A stretch of DNA of 64,000 nt. It comes from Escherichia coli (GTDB lineage Bacteria > Pseudomonadota > Gammaproteobacteria > Enterobacterales > Enterobacteriaceae). The translations under genes and the position numbers were made by a program. The notes beneath the pieces were generated by a model. It was not told the DNA's origin. It saw only the letters and a list, made by a program, of their open reading frames with translations, and searched no databases. The stretch lies in NCBI RefSeq assembly GCF_016026235.1, contig NZ_CP065613.1; one strand, 5' to 3'. Positions 2,363-34,164 of this stretch are shown here, in pieces (positions within the stretch are counted from its first letter, which is position 1; each line of letters starts with the position of its first letter).

Positions 2363-3745
2363 TTAGTTCTGCACTTCTTGAGAGGTGAATTGTTGCTGGC
2401 AACGGCGTTTGCCCTGAGCCAGCTGTTCCATAACGGTTTTCAGATTGTGCGTCGTGAGTGAGTAGTAGCGTTTAGCGATAATCGCGCTCAGCAAATAACA
2501 GATCGCCGGAACAATCGTGAATAGCGCGATAATGATGCTAATCGTGGCGCTGTTCTGCGCTTTTTCTGCCGCATCATATCCGCCATAAGCCAGCATCCAG
2601 CCGATAAGAGCGCCGCCGAAGGCCAACCCCAGTTTGAGCACAAACAGCGTGCCAGCAAAACTGATCCCGGTCAGGCGTTTACCATTGCACCACTCGCCGT
2701 AATCGACGGTATCGGACATCATTACCCACTGGATAGGTGTCACCAGTTGATGCAACACACCAATCACGAAGATGAAGACAAACATAGTGATGCTGGCCTG
2801 CATGGGAACAAAGAACATTGCGAGGCTAATCACTGCCAGCAGGGCGTTCGTCCACCAGAAGATAGTGACTTTACATTTCCAGTCGGTCAGCGGTTTTGCC
2901 AGTGCGGAACCAATCAGGTTACCCACGCAATAAGTGGTGAGAAAAGCGACAAACACTTCCGGCGTACCCAAAATCCATGTGACGTAATACATCATCGCCC
3001 CACCGCGTACGCACACCGCCAGGATATTGAAAATGGTTAGTAAACCGACAATCCGCCACTGGTCGTTTTGCCAGATATCACGTAAATCTTCCCGCATAGA
3101 CGTCGTTGTAGGTGGTGCTTCAACGCGTTCTTTAGTGGTGAAGAAACAGAATGCCAGCATCATGAATGCCACCACGGAAAGGACCGCGATACCGCCCTGG
3201 AAACCGAGTGGTTTATTATCACCACCAATTAAATTAACCAGTGGCATCATCAGAACAGTAGAGAGCATGCCTCCCGCGGTCGCCAGCACAAAACGCCAGA
3301 ATTGCAGCGAGATACGCTGAGTCGGGTCATTGGTGATTACACCACCCAATGCGCAGTAAGGGATATTGACGACGGTATAAAGTAAGGTAAGTAGGGTGTA
3401 AGTAATTGCTGCATAGATCATTTTTCCGTTCATAGTGAGATCTGGCGTGCTATAGGCCAGTACACAGACGATCCCGAATGGCAGTGCGCCAAACAGTACC
3501 CACGGACGAAATTTACCCCAGCGAGAGCGCGTTCGATCGGCCAACAATCCCATGCAAGGATCGGAAATCGCATCCAGTGCACGAGCGACCAAAAACATGG
3601 TTCCGACAAATCCGGCAGGAATGCCAAAAATATCGGTATAAAAGAACATCATATATAACATTACGTTATCGAAAATAATGTGGCTGGCGGCGTCTCCCAT
3701 GCCATAACCAATTTTCTCTTTAACGGACAACACTTCACTCTTCAT
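2363..3745 (-). CDS. yicJ: sugar:cation symporter (GPH family), likely co-transcribed with yicI
   Basis: Track ORF is 479 aa; trimmed to the internal Met (MKSEVLSVKEK...) giving 460 aa, with an AAGGA-like RBS upstream. Lies 10 nt upstream of yicI on the same strand. Confidence 0.85.
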   Translation of the reverse strand: MKSEVLSVKEKIGYGMGDAASHIIFDNVMLYMMFFYTDIFGIPAGFVGTMFLVARALDAISDPCMGLLADRTRSRWGKFRPWVLFGALPFGIVCVLAYSTPDLTMNGKMIYAAITYTLLTLLYTVVNIPYCALGGVITNDPTQRISLQFWRFVLATAGGMLSTVLMMPLVNLIGGDNKPLGFQGGIAVLSVVAFMMLAFCFFTTKERVEAPPTTTSMREDLRDIWQNDQWRIVGLLTIFNILAVCVRGGAMMYYVTWILGTPEVFVAFLTTYCVGNLIGSALAKPLTDWKCKVTIFWWTNALLAVISLAMFFVPMQASITMFVFIFVIGVLHQLVTPIQWVMMSDTVDYGEWCNGKRLTGISFAGTLFVLKLGLAFGGALIGWMLAYGGYDAAEKAQNSATISIIIALFTIVPAICYLLSAIIAKRYYSLTTHNLKTVMEQLAQGKRRCQQQFTSQEVQN

Positions 3746-4000
3746 CTGCTTTTCCTTGATGCTATAGGGGTGCTGAGACCGATAACGCATTTTGTAAACC
3801 ATCCCTGTGAGAGCGAATATTCCGATATCTGGTTATTAATTTATGATTCTTGTTTTATGTGATCGTGGTAGCGTTAATTCCGCTCATATATCATTGTAAA
3901 ATATGGGTTTTATATGAACTATAATGCTTTCGTGATAATACGCTGCGTGTATTAGGCGGAAAAAACTGATCTGGGGGATGTAGAAACTCAAGGAAGTAGC

Positions 4001-9783: not shown

Positions 9784-10143
9784 ATGCGCGTGTTTAAAAC
9801 CAAATGGTTTGCAAGGGAAGCCAGGTCTCATGCAATAACAGATGAAGAGTTGTGCCGGGCCATTTTAGAAACGGAGCAAGGTAAAGCTGATGCACTTGGT
9901 GGTGGCGTTTTTAAAAAGCGCCTTCACCAAAATCGTGAGCGTGCAATTATTCTGGCAAAAGGGGGAAGCAATTGGTTTTACACGTTTTTATATGCAAAAC
10001 AGGATATGTCGAACATCAATAGTCAGGAACTGGCTGGGTTTCGTGAACTTGCAAAGCATTATGCCTTCCTGACGAAAGCCCAGCTAACAGCAATGATTAA
10101 CACTAAAGAACTGACAGAGATCTGCTATGACTGCAAAAACTAA
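9784..10143 (+). CDS. putative type II toxin, RelE/ParE superfamily (HigB-2-like)
   Basis: 119-aa basic protein; overlaps the downstream HTH gene by 17 nt (ATGACTGCAAAAACTAA). Family assignment is from architecture and recalled resemblance, not a search. Confidence 0.55.
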   Translation: MRVFKTKWFAREARSHAITDEELCRAILETEQGKADALGGGVFKKRLHQNRERAIILAKGGSNWFYTFLYAKQDMSNINSQELAGFRELAKHYAFLTKAQLTAMINTKELTEICYDCKN

Positions 10144-10450
10144 ATTTAAAAGTCCTGCATTTGAGGCTATTCACAGCGCAGCGGCTGGATTGTCCAGCGT
10201 CGATGCTATTTCTGCCGAAACAATGCGTACTTTTGACAAAGCCTGCCTGACCAGCGTGCAAGACTTACAACCTGTTGAGATAAAAGCACTGCGGGAAAAA
10301 TTAAAAGTGAGTCAGCCCGTCTTCGCTCACTATCTCAATACCAGCGTTTCAACTGTACAAAAATGGGAAAGTGGCGCTAAACGCCCCAATGGCATTTCAT
10401 TAAAACTGCTCAGCATTGTGCAAAAACACGGGCTGGATGTGCTGCTGTAA
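10127..10450 (+). CDS. putative antitoxin, helix-turn-helix (Xre-like) DNA-binding protein
   Basis: 107 aa with a C-terminal HTH-like segment (...SQPVFAHYLNTSVSTVQKWESGAKRP...); translationally coupled to the upstream toxin-like gene. Confidence 0.55.
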   Translation: MTAKTKFKSPAFEAIHSAAAGLSSVDAISAETMRTFDKACLTSVQDLQPVEIKALREKLKVSQPVFAHYLNTSVSTVQKWESGAKRPNGISLKLLSIVQKHGLDVLL

Positions 10451-10491
10451 ATAGAACGTAGATAATGCGTCACCTACTGTCAGTTCCGATA

Positions 10492-10562
10492 CCGGATGCG
10501 GCGTGAACGTCTTATCCACCCACCAGCTCAGGCGCGGTCTGTAGGCTGATAAGACGAAGCGG
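10492..10562. repeat. pair of REP-like palindromic units (BIME-like)
   Basis: CCGGATGCGGCGTGAACGTCTTATCC and GTAGGCTGATAAGACGAAGCGG in opposite orientation; resemble E. coli REP consensus. Confidence 0.5.
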
Positions 10563-10564
10563 TT

Positions 10565-11017
10565 TTAATGCAGCCAGTGAACGCCCTCGGCAGGCTGAAA
10601 GAATGCGTTATAGCGCATCTGAAAAGCATTAATATCCTGCATTTCAGGTTCAGTTTCGCGCAGAAAACCCAGCGCCAGCCTGACCTGAGCATCGGTAATC
10701 GGCGCGGCAAGGCGGGCTTTTTGTAAAATCCGATGCCATTGCAGCAGGTTCTGTTCGCTACCATCGACAATGACAATTTGCCAGATGAGCAACACCTGCG
10801 CGGCGTTTTGCAGGTGCGACTCATCCGGACGATGCAAATAACGTAAAAATTCGTCACCAGCTGACTTTCCCATTTGATCGACCATCGACTCCACGGGTAC
10901 GACATCGATATTCAGCCGATCGCTGAGACGGCGAATCGCTTTTCTGGCCCCGGATGTCAGCACCCGAAAACCAACCACAAACACTACCGCCAGCGTGGCG
11001 AGCATTATCCAGATCAT
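10565..11017 (-). CDS. yicN: DUF1198-type membrane protein
   Basis: Track ORF is 185 aa; trimmed to MIWIMLATLAVVFVV... (150 aa). Start choice is uncertain. Confidence 0.7.
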   Translation of the reverse strand: MIWIMLATLAVVFVVGFRVLTSGARKAIRRLSDRLNIDVVPVESMVDQMGKSAGDEFLRYLHRPDESHLQNAAQVLLIWQIVIVDGSEQNLLQWHRILQKARLAAPITDAQVRLALGFLRETEPEMQDINAFQMRYNAFFQPAEGVHWLH

Positions 11018-11069
11018 GAGTTCTCCTGCGTAATCAAAACTCATGATATCTGGAAACCCTCGCCAGTTA

Positions 11070-12298
11070 CTAATCCACCAGAATAATCTTGAGTGCAAAC
11101 AGAGCTGCGACCACCACCACACACAGGTTCAGATCGCGCCAGCGCCCGGTGCACACTTTCATGATGCAGTACGACATAAAGCCGAGTGCAATCCCTTCGG
11201 TGATCGAGAAAGTAAAGGGCATCATCACCGTGGTAATAAACGCAGGCACCGATTCGGTAAAATCATCCCAGTTAACGCGCGCCAGGCTCGAAGTCATCAG
11301 CACGCCAACAAAGATTAACGCTCCAGCGGTTGCGTAAGGAGGAACCATCGCCACCAGCGGTGAGAAGAACATAACCAACAGGAACATAACGCCAACCACA
11401 ACCGCAGTCAGCCCCGTGCGGCCACCCACTGCCACGCCAGAAGTACTTTCAATATAGGCGGTAACAGACGAGGTGCCGATAAACGCACCCGCCACCGAAC
11501 TCACGCTATCAACATACAGCGCCTTATTCATATTGGGGAATTTACCGTTACTATCTATTAAGCCAGCTTTATCAGTCACACCAATTAATGTTCCTGATGA
11601 ATCAAATAGGTTGATCAGCATAAAGGAGAAAATGATACCGGCGAGTTCAAGTGTTAACGCGCCGCTCAAATCCACTTCACCAATGACGCCGCTAATATCA
11701 GGCGGAATGGAATAGACACCGCTAAAATGAACATCACCGAAAAATAATCCACAGCAAGACGTCACCACAATAGAAACCAGCACCGCGGCATGAAAATGAC
11801 GTGATGACAACACGGTTATAATAAAAAACCCTAAAATACCTAACAACACGCCGTGAGAACTTAAATCGCCAATCATCACCAGAGTGTCTTTATTGGCGAC
11901 AATAACGCCAGTATTTTTTAATCCCATTAAGGCGATAAATAATCCAATTCCGCTGGTGATACCAATACGTAAACTTAATGGAATGTTGGAGATCATCCAG
12001 TACCGGATACGAAACAGCGTGAGCAAAAATAGTCCAATTGCACCCCAGAATATTGCGCCCATCCCGGTCTGCCATGAGATCCCCATCGCCCCCACGACCA
12101 CGAAGGCAAAGAAGGCGTTCAGCCCCATTGCCGGAGCCAGCGCCACAGGTAAGTTAGCAAATATCCCCATCGCAATGCTGCCGATACCGGCAATCAAACA
12201 GGTGGTAACAAACACCACTTTCGGGTCCATTTGTGCCGCGCCGAGAATTTGCGGGTTCACAAAAACGATGTACACCATGGTTAAAAAAGTGGTCATCC
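11070..12298 (-). pseudogene. adeQ: adenine permease AdeQ, 3' portion (codons ~37-444), separated from its 5' end by an IS insertion
   Basis: 408-aa ORF beginning MTTFLTMVYIVFVNPQ...; the N-terminus (MNNDNTDYV...ELIAGMTT) lies on the far side of the IS. Confidence 0.8.
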
Positions 12299-13593
12299 CC
12301 TGAGGGATCCCCAGAAAATTTAGTAAACCATTATCATATTGGTATACCGTTGCTGTAGAACTTTCAGCCCTGCGTCAAGTGACAGTGTGTTTAGTATGAG
12401 TGGAGAATGTCGAATCACATTCTCCGCCAGTTTTAATAACGAGATGACTCGCCTGTGCTTCACTGTATTTGCCTGATATTTATGATGTATCCCTTTGTTT
12501 TCCAGGCTGAAACCGCTTAACCACATAATGATACTGGCTAATGTTGCGATCAGACTCAATACCGTGACCCGCCCGGATGAATGACTGGCACCAAACCGTA
12601 GTCCAAATCCCCAGCGAGGATTTTTTCATCCCTGAAATTTTGCTCAATTTGCATTCTACGGCTGTATAATTTCATTACCTGTTTTGGCGAGAACTCAGTA
12701 CTGTTTGTGAAAATAAACCATGGTGATTTCCCGGCAGTACGAGCTTTAGCCGTCACCGATGGTCTGGTTGCTCTTTCCTTCGAGCGTTTAAATCTACGAC
12801 CTTTAGACTTACTTTTATAAAGATAAAAATGCCCTTCATGTTGTGCATTTTTATCTCGACCCAGCAGGCCTTCATCTAAATAAATTGCTGTCGTTGATGC
12901 TTTTGTGCCTGAGTCCGACACCTTTTCCCAGCCATTACCAACATTGTAATAATGATTGCCCAGTACCCGGCAAATATAGGTCCAGCCACGGGAGCGGAGC
13001 TGTTGGAACCATCGCCCCTGAAAACCGGCATCTGTAATAACAATGACATCAGTCCCGGGGGAAAAGCACTCAGCAAGCGATTCCAGAAAACGCTCATGTA
13101 CATCTGCATTCGCTGTCTGTGATGATGGAACGACACAACTCATCAACGGTAAAGAACGCCCGTCACATGCCAGGCTTGCCCGCAAAAGCTGAAAACGAGA
13201 GGCATGATAAGCACTCCAGTCAATGAGTATCACAACACGAGACATTCCCCGCGTAATCTTTTGGGTAATTCGCTGAAAAATGGTGGAAACCTCATTTTGC
13301 AAATGTCGATTCCCCAACAGTCGATCCACCCGCTTTATTTTGTTTTTAACTGATGCCGTACCGGTTAAATGACGCCCGATACTGGTAAGTGTGAGGGAAG
13401 CGCCATTTATTACAGCATTAGTTGCGTCAATCAGTGATTTTTGACGGTAAAGATGCAAAGGGGCCAGTATGTTGTTAAGGAAATTTTGGCATAATGAACG
13501 TGCAGGCATAGTGGTGATCTCCTTGAAATTGTTAGCACAATCAATTAGATCACATCTCACTATGCCTGTCTTGTTTTCTGGGGATTCCTCAGT
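12299..13593 (-). mobile_element. IS4-family, IS10-like insertion sequence (~1.29 kb) inserted in adeQ
   Basis: Terminal inverted repeats CTGAGGGATCCCC (left) and GGGGATTCCTCAG (right) resemble IS10 ends; flanked by direct repeat TGGTCATCC at 12290-12298 and 13593-13601. Boundary is ambiguous by 1 nt. Confidence 0.8.
12320..13509 (-). pseudogene. IS10-like DDE transposase, frameshifted
   Basis: Translation from MPARSL... shares blocks with IS10 transposase (NKIKRVDRLLGNRHL, DAGF, YLYKSKSKGRRF, YSRRMQIEQNFRD). Reading frame changes near 12619-12626 at an A6 run; the C-terminal ~80 codons continue in the adjacent frame. Confidence 0.75.
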
Positions 13594-13707
13594 GGTCATC
13601 CCCGCAATCAATTCTGTGCGGACGGTGGTCCCATGCTGAGGTAGTTTAAATAATCGCGAAAGCGTCCCTGATTCATTACTCACGTAATCGGTATTGTCAT
13701 TATTCAT
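13593..13707 (-). pseudogene. adeQ: adeQ 5' fragment (first ~39 codons) plus native promoter side
   Basis: MNNDNTDYVSNESGTLSRLFKLPQHGTTVRTELIAGMTT runs directly into the IS end; the duplicated target repeats the GMTT coding bases. Confidence 0.75.
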
Positions 13708-13881
13708 TTTTTTGTCCATTGGAGGAGATTTAATCCCTTGCTTTTGTAAAACAAATGACAACAACGGTTCAGTGATAATTATCACATTTCAATTGCACAT
13801 TAATGGATATTCTTTAATAATCTCGCGACGTTTCTTTATGATAAATAATAATCAAATTGATAAAATCAAAATGAGAAAAAT

Positions 13882-20641: not shown

Positions 20642-20715
20642 GGTCTTGTCCTGGCGGGTAAAAAAAAACGCGCTTACCTTAACGATAAGCGCGATGTTGT
20701 TCAAGCCTTGAGCGG

Positions 20716-33066: not shown

Positions 33067-34164
33067 TCAGACCTCCGCCCATGTTGCCACCACACCAAAG
33101 AGATACATTACGGTCGACATTGAGGCCGCAAGCACAGCGTGTACCGCAAACAGCAACGGTGAAATGAACAGGAAGGTAAATTCCAGCGGTTCGGTAATTC
33201 CCACCAGCATGGCGGTTAAGGTTGCGGGAATCAGCAAGCCCGCCACTTTTACCCGATTTTCCGGTGCGGCAGTGAAGTACATCGCTAAAGAAATGCCCAC
33301 GGCACCAAAGATTTTTGAGTTACCGTGCAGGGCAAAACCGCCTTCCGGGAACAACGATTTCAGCGGCTCGGCGCTCAGACTGAACTCTTGCAGATGCTGC
33401 GCCCAGTACATCTGAATGCCGCCTTCAACAGCTGCCGGACCAAAGATAAACGGTCCGTAGATGAAGTGGTGTAAACCGGTTGGGATCAGAATACGTTCGA
33501 GGAAGGTGTAAACCCACACCCCAAGCGCACCCGCCGAACGCAGGAACGCTTGCAGAGATTCAATCCCCATTTGTACTTTTGGCCAGCCGAGCAATGTCAG
33601 CCAGGCACAGGGGATCATCACCAGGAAGGCGATAATCACCACATAAGACGTCCCCTGGAAAATGCCGAGAAAAACCGGCAGTTTTTTATCGAACAGACGG
33701 TTATGCAGCGCCGTCACAATGCCGGAAATGATAATTGCGCCGATAATGCTGGTATCGAGGGTTTTAATCCCGGCCATCATTGTCAGACCGCTACCTGCCA
33801 CCGCGTCCTGAGTGAAATCGACGCCGAAGTAGCTTCCCCAGGTCATTCCCATCGCATTGATGAAATAGTTCCAGGTCAGGAAACTCACCATCACCGCCAG
33901 ACAAGCACGCCCCTGCGCTTGCTTAGCAAGGCCAATGGGTAAACCGACAGCAAAAATCAGCGGCATATTACGGAATACCGTCCAACCGCCCTCTTCAATA
34001 ATGTGTACGATTTGCGCGAATAAACTGTTTGGATCGGTCAGTGATTCCCCGACAAACATCGGGTTTTGCAGCAAGATGGCAAGACCCACCACAATCCCGG
34101 CGAAGGGAAACAGCAGCACTGGCGTAAACATCGCGCCGCCAAAGCGTTGAATTTGACTGAGCAT
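33067..34164 (-). CDS. glvC: PTS alpha-glucoside EIIC domain; frame break before the EIIB domain
   Basis: 365 aa from MLSQIQRFGGAMF... with a GAGG RBS; the EIIC ORF end overlaps the EIIB ORF in another frame. Confidence 0.7.
   Translation of the reverse strand: MLSQIQRFGGAMFTPVLLFPFAGIVVGLAILLQNPMFVGESLTDPNSLFAQIVHIIEEGGWTVFRNMPLIFAVGLPIGLAKQAQGRACLAVMVSFLTWNYFINAMGMTWGSYFGVDFTQDAVAGSGLTMMAGIKTLDTSIIGAIIISGIVTALHNRLFDKKLPVFLGIFQGTSYVVIIAFLVMIPCAWLTLLGWPKVQMGIESLQAFLRSAGALGVWVYTFLERILIPTGLHHFIYGPFIFGPAAVEGGIQMYWAQHLQEFSLSAEPLKSLFPEGGFALHGNSKIFGAVGISLAMYFTAAPENRVKVAGLLIPATLTAMLVGITEPLEFTFLFISPLLFAVHAVLAASMSTVMYLFGVVATWAEV

Follow-up and report, generated by a model that had tools for sequence, protein, structure and literature searches.

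ISEc60 and the interrupted adeQ gene

The window analysed here, a stretch of 64,000 nucleotides of Escherichia coli DNA, carries a copy of an insertion sequence that interrupts adeQ, the gene for an adenine permease, after codon 39. The 5' fragment of adeQ, comprising these 39 codons (13593..13707, minus strand), is in frame with the transposase through the leader of the IS, such that one open reading frame extends over 12556..13785. The 3' fragment, annotated as adeQ in relatives, lies on the same strand at 11070..12299 (ORF 11070..12296). When the two fragments (13707-13593 and 12299-11070) are joined and one copy of a 10-bp duplication is subtracted, an intact gene of 1335 bp results, and at the corresponding position in a sister assembly a 462-aa adeQ-transposase fusion has been called. 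The closest complete genome, that of E. coli FDAARGOS_943 (99.9% identity over 24 kb), contains ISEc60 at about 38 places. Its adeQ gene is intact and the empty target site is present there once, so that the adeQ::ISEc60 insertion must be younger than the split from FDAARGOS_943. The junction of adeQ with ISEc60 was not found in 5,426 complete E. coli genomes.

Judged by its sequence, the element is ISEc60, a member of the IS4 family and probably of its IS10-like subgroup. It occupies 12300..13592 on the minus strand, a length of 1293 bp in the window as against 1294 bp in intact copies, and is over its full length (1293 bp) 99.8% identical to copies that carry the RefSeq annotation 'IS4-like element ISEc60 family transposase', from which the name is taken. 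A pattern search reveals a single ISEc60 copy within the 64-kb window. The copy has inverted repeats of 19 bp at its ends (CTGAGGRATCCCCAGAAAA; 2 matches in the pattern search against 0.01 expected by chance), one on the transposase-start side at 13574..13592, reading CTGAGGAATCCCCAGAAAA on the minus strand (repeat pair I1), and the other at the transposase-distal end at 12300..12318, reading CTGAGGGATCCCCAGAAAA on the plus strand. Outside these lie the left and right copies of the 10-bp target-site duplication TGGTCATCCC at 12290..12299 and 13593..13602 (direct-repeat family D1). Comparison of flanks gave a duplication of 10 bp in six of seven ISEc60 copies and of 11 bp in the remaining one, that is, about one helical turn (about 10 bp), as expected under the IS4-family criteria of De Palmenaer et al. 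2008 (PMC2266710). The alternative of a 9-bp duplication adjoining a G that forms the end of the IS was rejected, since the duplication of one copy starts with A.

The original prediction had likened the element to IS10, a label that probably holds at the level of the subgroup but not for the element itself, the ISEc60 transposase being 36% identical to that of IS10A/ISVsa5 (over 93% of the length, E 4e-64) and 52% identical to that of ISSfl1. The latter, an IS4-family element of the Shigella flexneri virulence plasmid, is the nearest differently named IS (51.6% transposase identity, 100% of the length). Features common to ISEc60 and IS10/ISVsa5 (Tn10) include the 5'-CT ends, the single ORF and the combination of the DDE and Y(2)R(3)E(6)K motifs; the ISEc60 ends (CTGAGG...) and its length of 1293/1294 bp fall within the range of the IS10 subgroup (5'-CT ends, 1200-1350 bp). 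The duplication, by contrast, is 10 bp as opposed to 9 bp in the IS10 subgroup (Table 1, PMC2266710), and the apparent target preference of ISEc60, which looks like GCGGGG-N4-CCCCGC, is unlike the IS10 hotspot.

At the start of the transposase gene the leader RNA can form a stable hairpin (13503..13568, minus strand; inverted repeats I7 and I8), in which both the Shine-Dalgarno sequence (AAGGAG) and the ATG are paired with the upstream leader. The predicted fold has an energy of -37.9 kcal/mol (z = -6.5), and none of 200 shuffled sequences folded as well. This start-codon hairpin may be comparable to the fold-back inhibition of IS10.

The frame break in the transposase gene

As it stands in the window, the transposase ORF extends over 12556..13509 on the minus strand, with its ATG at 13509. 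A change of frame had been claimed at an A6 run (T6 on the plus strand, 12621-12626), and this is the exact position at which it occurs. The plus strand reads ...gcgagg a tttttt cat ccc..., and frame 0 of the minus strand reads AAT TTC AGG GAT GAA AAA ATC CTC, translated as N F R D E K I L A G D L D..., until a stop at 12556-12558. This stop follows 21 out-of-frame residues, which together with the native residues 1-296 make up a product of 317 aa. In the A7 form of the run the same region reads GAT GAA AAA AAT CCT (D E K N P), and it is relative to this form that a base is missing at 12621..12626.

The C-terminal 100 codons of the transposase, N297 to Y396, lie with their stop codon in the -1 frame at 12320..12622 on the minus strand. 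Read from 12622, this frame gives NPRWGFGLRFGASHSS...QANTV...MIMVY*, 100 codons without a stop. The adjacent frame had been proposed to continue the transposase C-terminus, and its protein is indeed identical to the C-terminus of the reference ISEc60. In a DNA alignment with five other copies, all five have A7 where the window has A6 (GATGAAAAAAATCC), a single base being missing in the run; the five include a relative of only 85% identity. With one A added, the ORF encodes 396 aa, of which 2 differ from WP_001111632.1, the 396-aa transposase of the reference ISEc60. The window copy thus has the inverted repeats and the 10-bp duplication of the reference element and is distinguished from it by the A6 run with the ensuing split ORF and by the substitutions G212D and P235S.

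The first of these substitutions (12875, minus strand; T on the plus strand as against C in other copies) alters a glycine that is invariant in 67 members of the family; it was found in none of 94 E. coli places and is common only to the assembly GCA_900449985.1. The second (12807, minus strand; plus-strand A as against G in most copies) is present in the same assembly and also in one plasmid copy (Z1323HEC0423).

What the broken frame encodes

By the same IS4-family definition, D(60-110)D(100-150)E, the catalytic triad of the transposase comprises D97, D160 and E289, separated by 62 and 128 residues; among 67 homologues no variation occurs at D160 or E289, and D97 shows a conservation of at least 90%. 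The Y(2)R(3)E(6)K signature is present as LYSRRMQIEQNFRDEK, corresponding to Y282, R285, E289 and K296. It is directly after K296, the lysine of this signature, that the frame breaks, such that the 317-aa ORF keeps D97, D160 and E289 as well as the whole of the motif. The Pfam domain DDE_Tnp_1 is detected in the 317-aa ORF with E=1.7e-19, and the NCBIfam equivalog NF033591 (transpos_IS4_2) with 262.2 bits, against a curated threshold of 152 bits; this match spans positions 1-245 of the 340 in the profile. An intact copy matches the same profile with 360.5 bits over positions 1-339 of 340.

In an AlphaFold model based on 67 homologues (pLDDT 85, pTM 0.86), the helix 275-296 ends at the break, and the part lost from the 317-aa product is predicted to contain the helices 312-338, 358-368, 370-375 and 378-394. 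The best structural matches of this model are the Tn5 transposase synaptic complexes 4DM0 and 1MUH (Foldseek E about 1e-9, probability 1.0). The relationship to Tn5 is apparent solely via the predicted structure, a direct sequence search of the PDB having returned no meaningful match. With the Tn5/IS50 transposase (PDB 1MUH, 4DM0; Foldseek E 7e-10, TM 0.57 over the full length) ISEc60 has the YREK motif in common, but the sequence identity amounts to 12% and the ISEc60 protein is about 80 residues shorter. According to a published account (PMC6182136, which cites Steiniger-White & Reznikoff 2000), formation of the paired-end complex and synapsis by the Tn5 transposase depend on its C-terminal helix and dimer interface. 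If the A6 run is real, the model suggests that the 317-aa product, deprived of the C-terminal helices that would match the Tn5 dimerisation region, should be inactive; it would keep the N-terminal DNA-binding region and might bind the IS ends, but should fail to synapse them.

The run in other copies and homologues

The transposases of this family had been claimed to be encoded by a single ORF, and both the lengths of the homologues and the literature support this. Of the 120 best protein homologues listed, about 110 have lengths of 393-405 aa at 100% coverage, and the lack of frameshifting is counted among the hallmarks of the IS4 family (PMC2266710). As assembled, the window copy, with A6 and two frames, departs from the single-ORF arrangement to which its relatives conform. 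Since both the relatives and the orthologous copies have a single ORF, the split in the window must be either a lesion of this copy or an error, and not a property of the element.

A query of 101 nt across the run retrieved the A6 allele in none of 98 places in 20 complete E. coli genomes, the full-length best matches having otherwise identical flanks and 99.0% identity over 102 bases, which corresponds to one gap. A7 was likewise found in three of three metagenome contigs. The sole exception is an A6 copy in GCA_900449095.1, otherwise identical to the reference, which is inserted at another locus with its own 10-bp duplication. At the protein level the A6 product of the reference ISEc60 sequence is on record once and the A8 product is not on record, nor did protein look-ups retrieve the products of 317 aa and 383 aa that the window itself encodes. 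Neither allele occurs in the GTDB representative genomes. Truncated homologues in the database were considered as possible instances of a recurrent break at the A-run, a notion that was rejected, as P0022, P0023, P0033 and P0034 are N-terminally short or cut elsewhere.

The orthologous insertion and the quality of the window sequence

The comparison with other copies that had been recommended to decide the matter yields an intact 396-codon ORF with A7, including the orthologous copy in adeQ in two sister assemblies. An exact-protein look-up of the neighbouring AdeD identified 21 contigs forming a tight lineage. Eight of these, from draft or short-read assemblies, end inside the IS or at its edge (window 13406-13574), which implies that they carry the same adeQ insertion, and two long-contig assemblies, GCA_031665325.1 and GCA_900449985.1, span it. 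In GCA_031665325.1 the run is A7, a 396-aa ORF has been called and both substitution sites have the reference bases. In GCA_900449985.1 A7 is combined with D212 and S235; over the 21,389 bp corresponding to window 2320-23707 there are no mismatches, and the sole difference is T7 versus T6. This identity, together with the presence of both substitutions, indicates the same strain or a near-clonal one. The frameshift is thus private to the window's assembly or isolate; it was not carried along with the element, and is absent from its nearest relative. That it might be older than the insertion, a defective copy having been mobilised in trans, was considered and rejected, as the orthologous copies in the two sisters are A7.

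The reliability of the window sequence can be gauged elsewhere. Over about 60 kb outside differences in IS content, the window and FDAARGOS_943 are distinguished by 29 substitutions and 2 single-base indels. In an A9/A10 run at 20660-20668 the window (A9) agrees with the outgroup. A one-base deletion at 33086 (CCC to CC) in a PTS IICB gene, causing a frameshift that follows codon 359 of 538, seemed private in a comparison with 4,269 complete genomes; the exact 365-aa PTS product, however, is on record in 24 or more contigs that stem from independent samples, short-read assemblies among them, and the deletion is therefore a real, inherited allele. Against a short-read assembly the window shows no indels and no mismatches over 21,098 bp, and against eight other contigs, over about 6.1 kb, seven are identical and the eighth has a single mismatch, which falls within the terminal repeat of the IS. 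Relatives agree with the window in all ten of the other 7-9 base homopolymers that could be checked. The idea of a generally error-prone assembly was accordingly rejected, with both indels relative to FDAARGOS_943 explained and no differences from the short-read assembly over 21 kb.

Recoding or a slippage switch as unlikely alternatives

It could be envisaged that the A6 run yields full-length transposase by recoding, either by -1 slippage of tRNA-Lys on A_AAA or by insertion of an extra A by RNA polymerase, and that the split is functional and attenuating, as it is in IS1 and IS3; we regard this as extremely unlikely. The register of the frames is compatible with it, for in frame 0, GA[A AAA] ATC, a -1 shift after the lysine reads AAT CCT CGC, which is native and restores D-E-K-N-P-R-W, and an extra A in the mRNA likewise gives D-E-K-N-P-R-W. 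The tRNA-Lys is known to be slippery, C-AAA-AAA having produced 25-60% of -1 shifting in the over-expression vector pDEST17 (PMC1851650), and some IS elements do use transcriptional slippage (PMC1088944). The window copy also resembles the IS1/IS3 frameshift and transcriptional-slippage elements in having an A run at the junction of two transposase frames. What is conserved in those elements, however, is a two-ORF layout, a heptamer A_AAA_AAG/A or a run of at least 9 nt and, usually, a stimulatory structure, none of which is found in ISEc60.

Programmed frameshifting, which had been raised as a possible outcome from the start, is rejected, since there is no slippery heptamer, no stimulatory RNA structure and no conserved split. 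Frame 0 (GAT GAA AAA ATC) contains no X_XXZ_ZZN heptamer but only the tetramer A_AAA, and tetramers without a stimulator gave 0.147% shifting compared with a background of 0.112%, A_AA.A being the weakest of six responsive tetramers even in the presence of a strong pseudoknot (PMC4066793). The RNA downstream of the run folds no better than shuffled sequences (46 nt, z = +0.52; 91 nt, z = -1.10). As for slippage by the polymerase, selection against it is evident at about 9 nt in many surveyed genomes, with variation between bacteria (PMC1088944), and the run is 6 nt here and 7 nt, and in frame, in the relatives. The split itself is not conserved, the relatives having A7 and one ORF with the exception of one isolated A6 record, and recoding would run counter to the hallmark of the IS4 family noted above. 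Any full-length protein made from A6 is expected to be at most a background trickle of about 0.1%.

A more elaborate scheme would regard the A7 tract after the YREK lysine as a reversible slippage switch that provides ISEc60 with copy-number control in the style of a contingency locus, which seems to us very improbable. Just as doubtful is the idea that a real A6 protein, catalytically complete and non-dimerising, would act as a monomer on IS ends and damp some 30-40 sister copies in trans. There is equally slender reason to suppose that rare -1 slippage or reversion to A7 serves to restore the full-length enzyme, with the A6 copy of GCA_900449095.1 as a recurrence of the same event.

Miscall or recent mutation

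The two explanations proposed at the outset, an inactivating one-base indel and a sequencing or assembly error at the homopolymer, are both supported and are the only live ones. We infer that the A6 is probably a one-base under-call of the homopolymer, that is, an assembly miscall inside a multicopy repeat. Long-read consensus sequences typically retain errors of just this kind, deletions of one base in a homopolymer, and, as copies of a multicopy IS cannot be uniquely polished by short reads, homopolymer miscalls survive there even when an assembly is clean in other respects. The run is only about 320 bp away from unique adeQ sequence. The under-call is favoured by the A7 of the orthologous copy in GCA_900449985.1, which lies in 21,389 bp of otherwise identical sequence, by the A7 of the same insertion in the second sister, GCA_031665325.1, and by the lack of A6 among the 98 places, the 3 metagenome contigs and the 5 aligned copies. 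The absence of any substitution relative to the closest relatives over 21-27 kb would leave hardly any time for a real mutation to arise at this one run, and the 100 downstream codons, stop-free and identical to the reference, reveal no decay after the supposed inactivation.

The competing explanation is a genuine and very recent slippage deletion of one A, confined to this copy and this isolate, which would have occurred after the insertion had been fixed in the lineage; we hold it to be quite possible, and several observations speak for it while weakening the case for a miscall. The window is free of errors wherever it can be checked, over about 27 kb against short-read assemblies; its other suspicious one-base deletion, the private-looking frameshift at 33086 in the PTS gene, is real; and the assembly resolved the private substitutions of this very copy correctly. 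Runs of A7 are known hotspots of slippage (PMC1088944), and the second, independent A6 copy on record (GCA_900449095.1) suggests that the run may be a true mutational hotspot. That copy, on the other hand, comes from a single assembly with a multi-megabase contig, by its accession probably long-read, and could itself be an error. A loss of function by deletion would also be in keeping with G212D, a change at a residue invariant in 67 homologues that fits a copy drifting without selection, with the fall in NF033591 coverage from 339/340 to 245/340 profile positions and with the loss of helices belonging to a fold that best matches the Tn5 transposase, for which the account cited above describes the C-terminus as needed for synapsis. 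Against a recent deletion, it is common to no independent assembly and has acquired no secondary lesions downstream, and the A7 of a sister identical over 21.4 kb would require the mutation to be extremely young.

On the preferred reading of an under-call, an ordinary single-ORF ISEc60 became inserted into adeQ in the recent ancestor of a clonal E. coli lineage, and the true state of the window copy is most likely A7, with an intact transposase gene of 396 codons.

Implications

In sum, the observation is an ordinary one, namely a homopolymer that differs by one base, privately to this assembly or isolate, in a copy of a known IS that is normal in other respects. Should the A6 prove to be a miscall, the proper annotation would be that of an intact ISEc60, potentially active, in a lineage where the expansion of this IS has produced dozens of copies. 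A genuine A6 would mean that the window contains one more dead IS copy incapable of autonomous transposition, the intact ends of which could in principle be moved by the transposase of other copies, albeit inefficiently owing to cis preference, Tn10/Tn5-type transposases acting preferentially in cis (PMC6182136). In that case slippage back to A7 would restore the frame, although the frame-restored protein might not be active, because G212D replaces a glycine invariant in 67 homologues. Either way, what is known of transposition in the IS4 family is unchanged, and the value of the observation lies mainly in annotation hygiene, the lesson being that a frameshift in a multicopy repeat should not be taken as biology if a clonal sister has the intact frame.

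Length variation in the window and its relatives

The six-A run that interrupts the ISEc60 transposase frame on the coding strand (window 12621-12626; A7 in intact copies) has one counterpart on record, an A6 copy in another E. coli assembly, GCA_900449095.1 (UGBT01000002.1 785123-789076, locus L012, with the element at locus positions 1418-2710), which is otherwise identical to the reference sequence and is flanked by genes for a molybdopterin-binding dehydrogenase and a xanthine/uracil permease. This second run represents either an independent slippage event or a homopolymer miscall of the same kind. Elsewhere in the window, the gene for a PTS IICB sugar transporter (34164 to ~32549, minus strand) is frameshifted at 33086 by a coding-strand deletion, GGG to GG, after codon 359 of 538, splitting it into two ORFs, one of 365 aa for IIC and one of 177 aa for IIB. 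The allele was not found among 4,269 complete E. coli genomes; its exact product is encoded in at least 24 contigs of the window's lineage, and the frameshift is therefore a real lineage marker. In the interval separating uhpA from ilvN, a poly-A tract (20660-20668) has nine residues in the window, as it does in the outgroup DS26-1, but ten in the closest complete genome, FDAARGOS_943; either the tract is polymorphic in length or the FDAARGOS_943 assembly is in error here.

Possible sequence exchange and target preference of ISEc60, and IS turnover

Over 9.77 kb the window (and likewise GCA_900449985.1) differs from GCA_031665325.1 (locus L017), which carries the same insertion, by just two substitutions, at 12807 and 12875, one of which, G212D, alters a glycine invariant in 67 homologues. 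Since both lie within the 1.29-kb element, an arrangement with a chance probability of ~0.018, their clustering points tentatively to gene conversion between copies of the element and away from point mutations arising in situ.

Comparison of seven target sites (window 12285-12299 and 13593-13607, together with the flanks of the copies at loci L001-L005 and L012) gave a duplication of 10 bp for six copies and 11 bp for the remaining one. Five of the seven targets resemble palindromes of the type GCGGGG-N4-CCCCGC, for example gcGGGGTTTCCCCcgc and gcGGGGAAAATCCCCgc, and the adeQ target in the window has only the left half-site. This pattern suggests that ISEc60 strongly prefers GC-rich targets with twofold symmetry, which may be hairpins of the terminator or REP type.

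Comparison with the syntenic region of FDAARGOS_943 (loci L009/L010), which is 99.9% identical, reveals three IS1 insertions and one of the IS5 family, none of them present in the window, where the corresponding empty sites lie at ~4565, 5277, 7838 and 30181; conversely, the adeQ::ISEc60 insertion is absent from FDAARGOS_943. IS turnover in the lineage is very fast relative to point mutation.

Possible control of transposase translation and its possible evasion

The ISEc60 leader RNA is predicted to form a very stable hairpin (window 13503-13568, minus strand; -37.9 kcal/mol, z = -6.5), equalled by none of 200 shuffles, in which the Shine-Dalgarno sequence AAGGAG and the ATG are paired with upstream leader sequence. 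The predicted structure resembles the arrangement in IS10, where read-through transcripts are subject to 'fold-back inhibition'.

On the minus strand of the window, the adeQ start codon (13707) opens a reading frame that crosses the 83-nt IS leader without meeting a stop and joins that of the transposase (adeQ'-leader-transposase reading frame at 12556-13785; compare positions 2438-3826 of locus L018 and 10001-11389 of locus L031). A 462-aa fusion, comprising 39 aa of AdeQ', 27 aa of leader and the transposase, is annotated in a sister assembly, and comparable fusions of host genes to the ISEc60 transposase, of 557-680 aa, are called in other E. coli (proteins P0001-P0008). Because the leader frame is stop-free and such calls recur, about one third of same-orientation ISEc60 insertions in genes could generate translational fusions that would evade the element's own start-site control.
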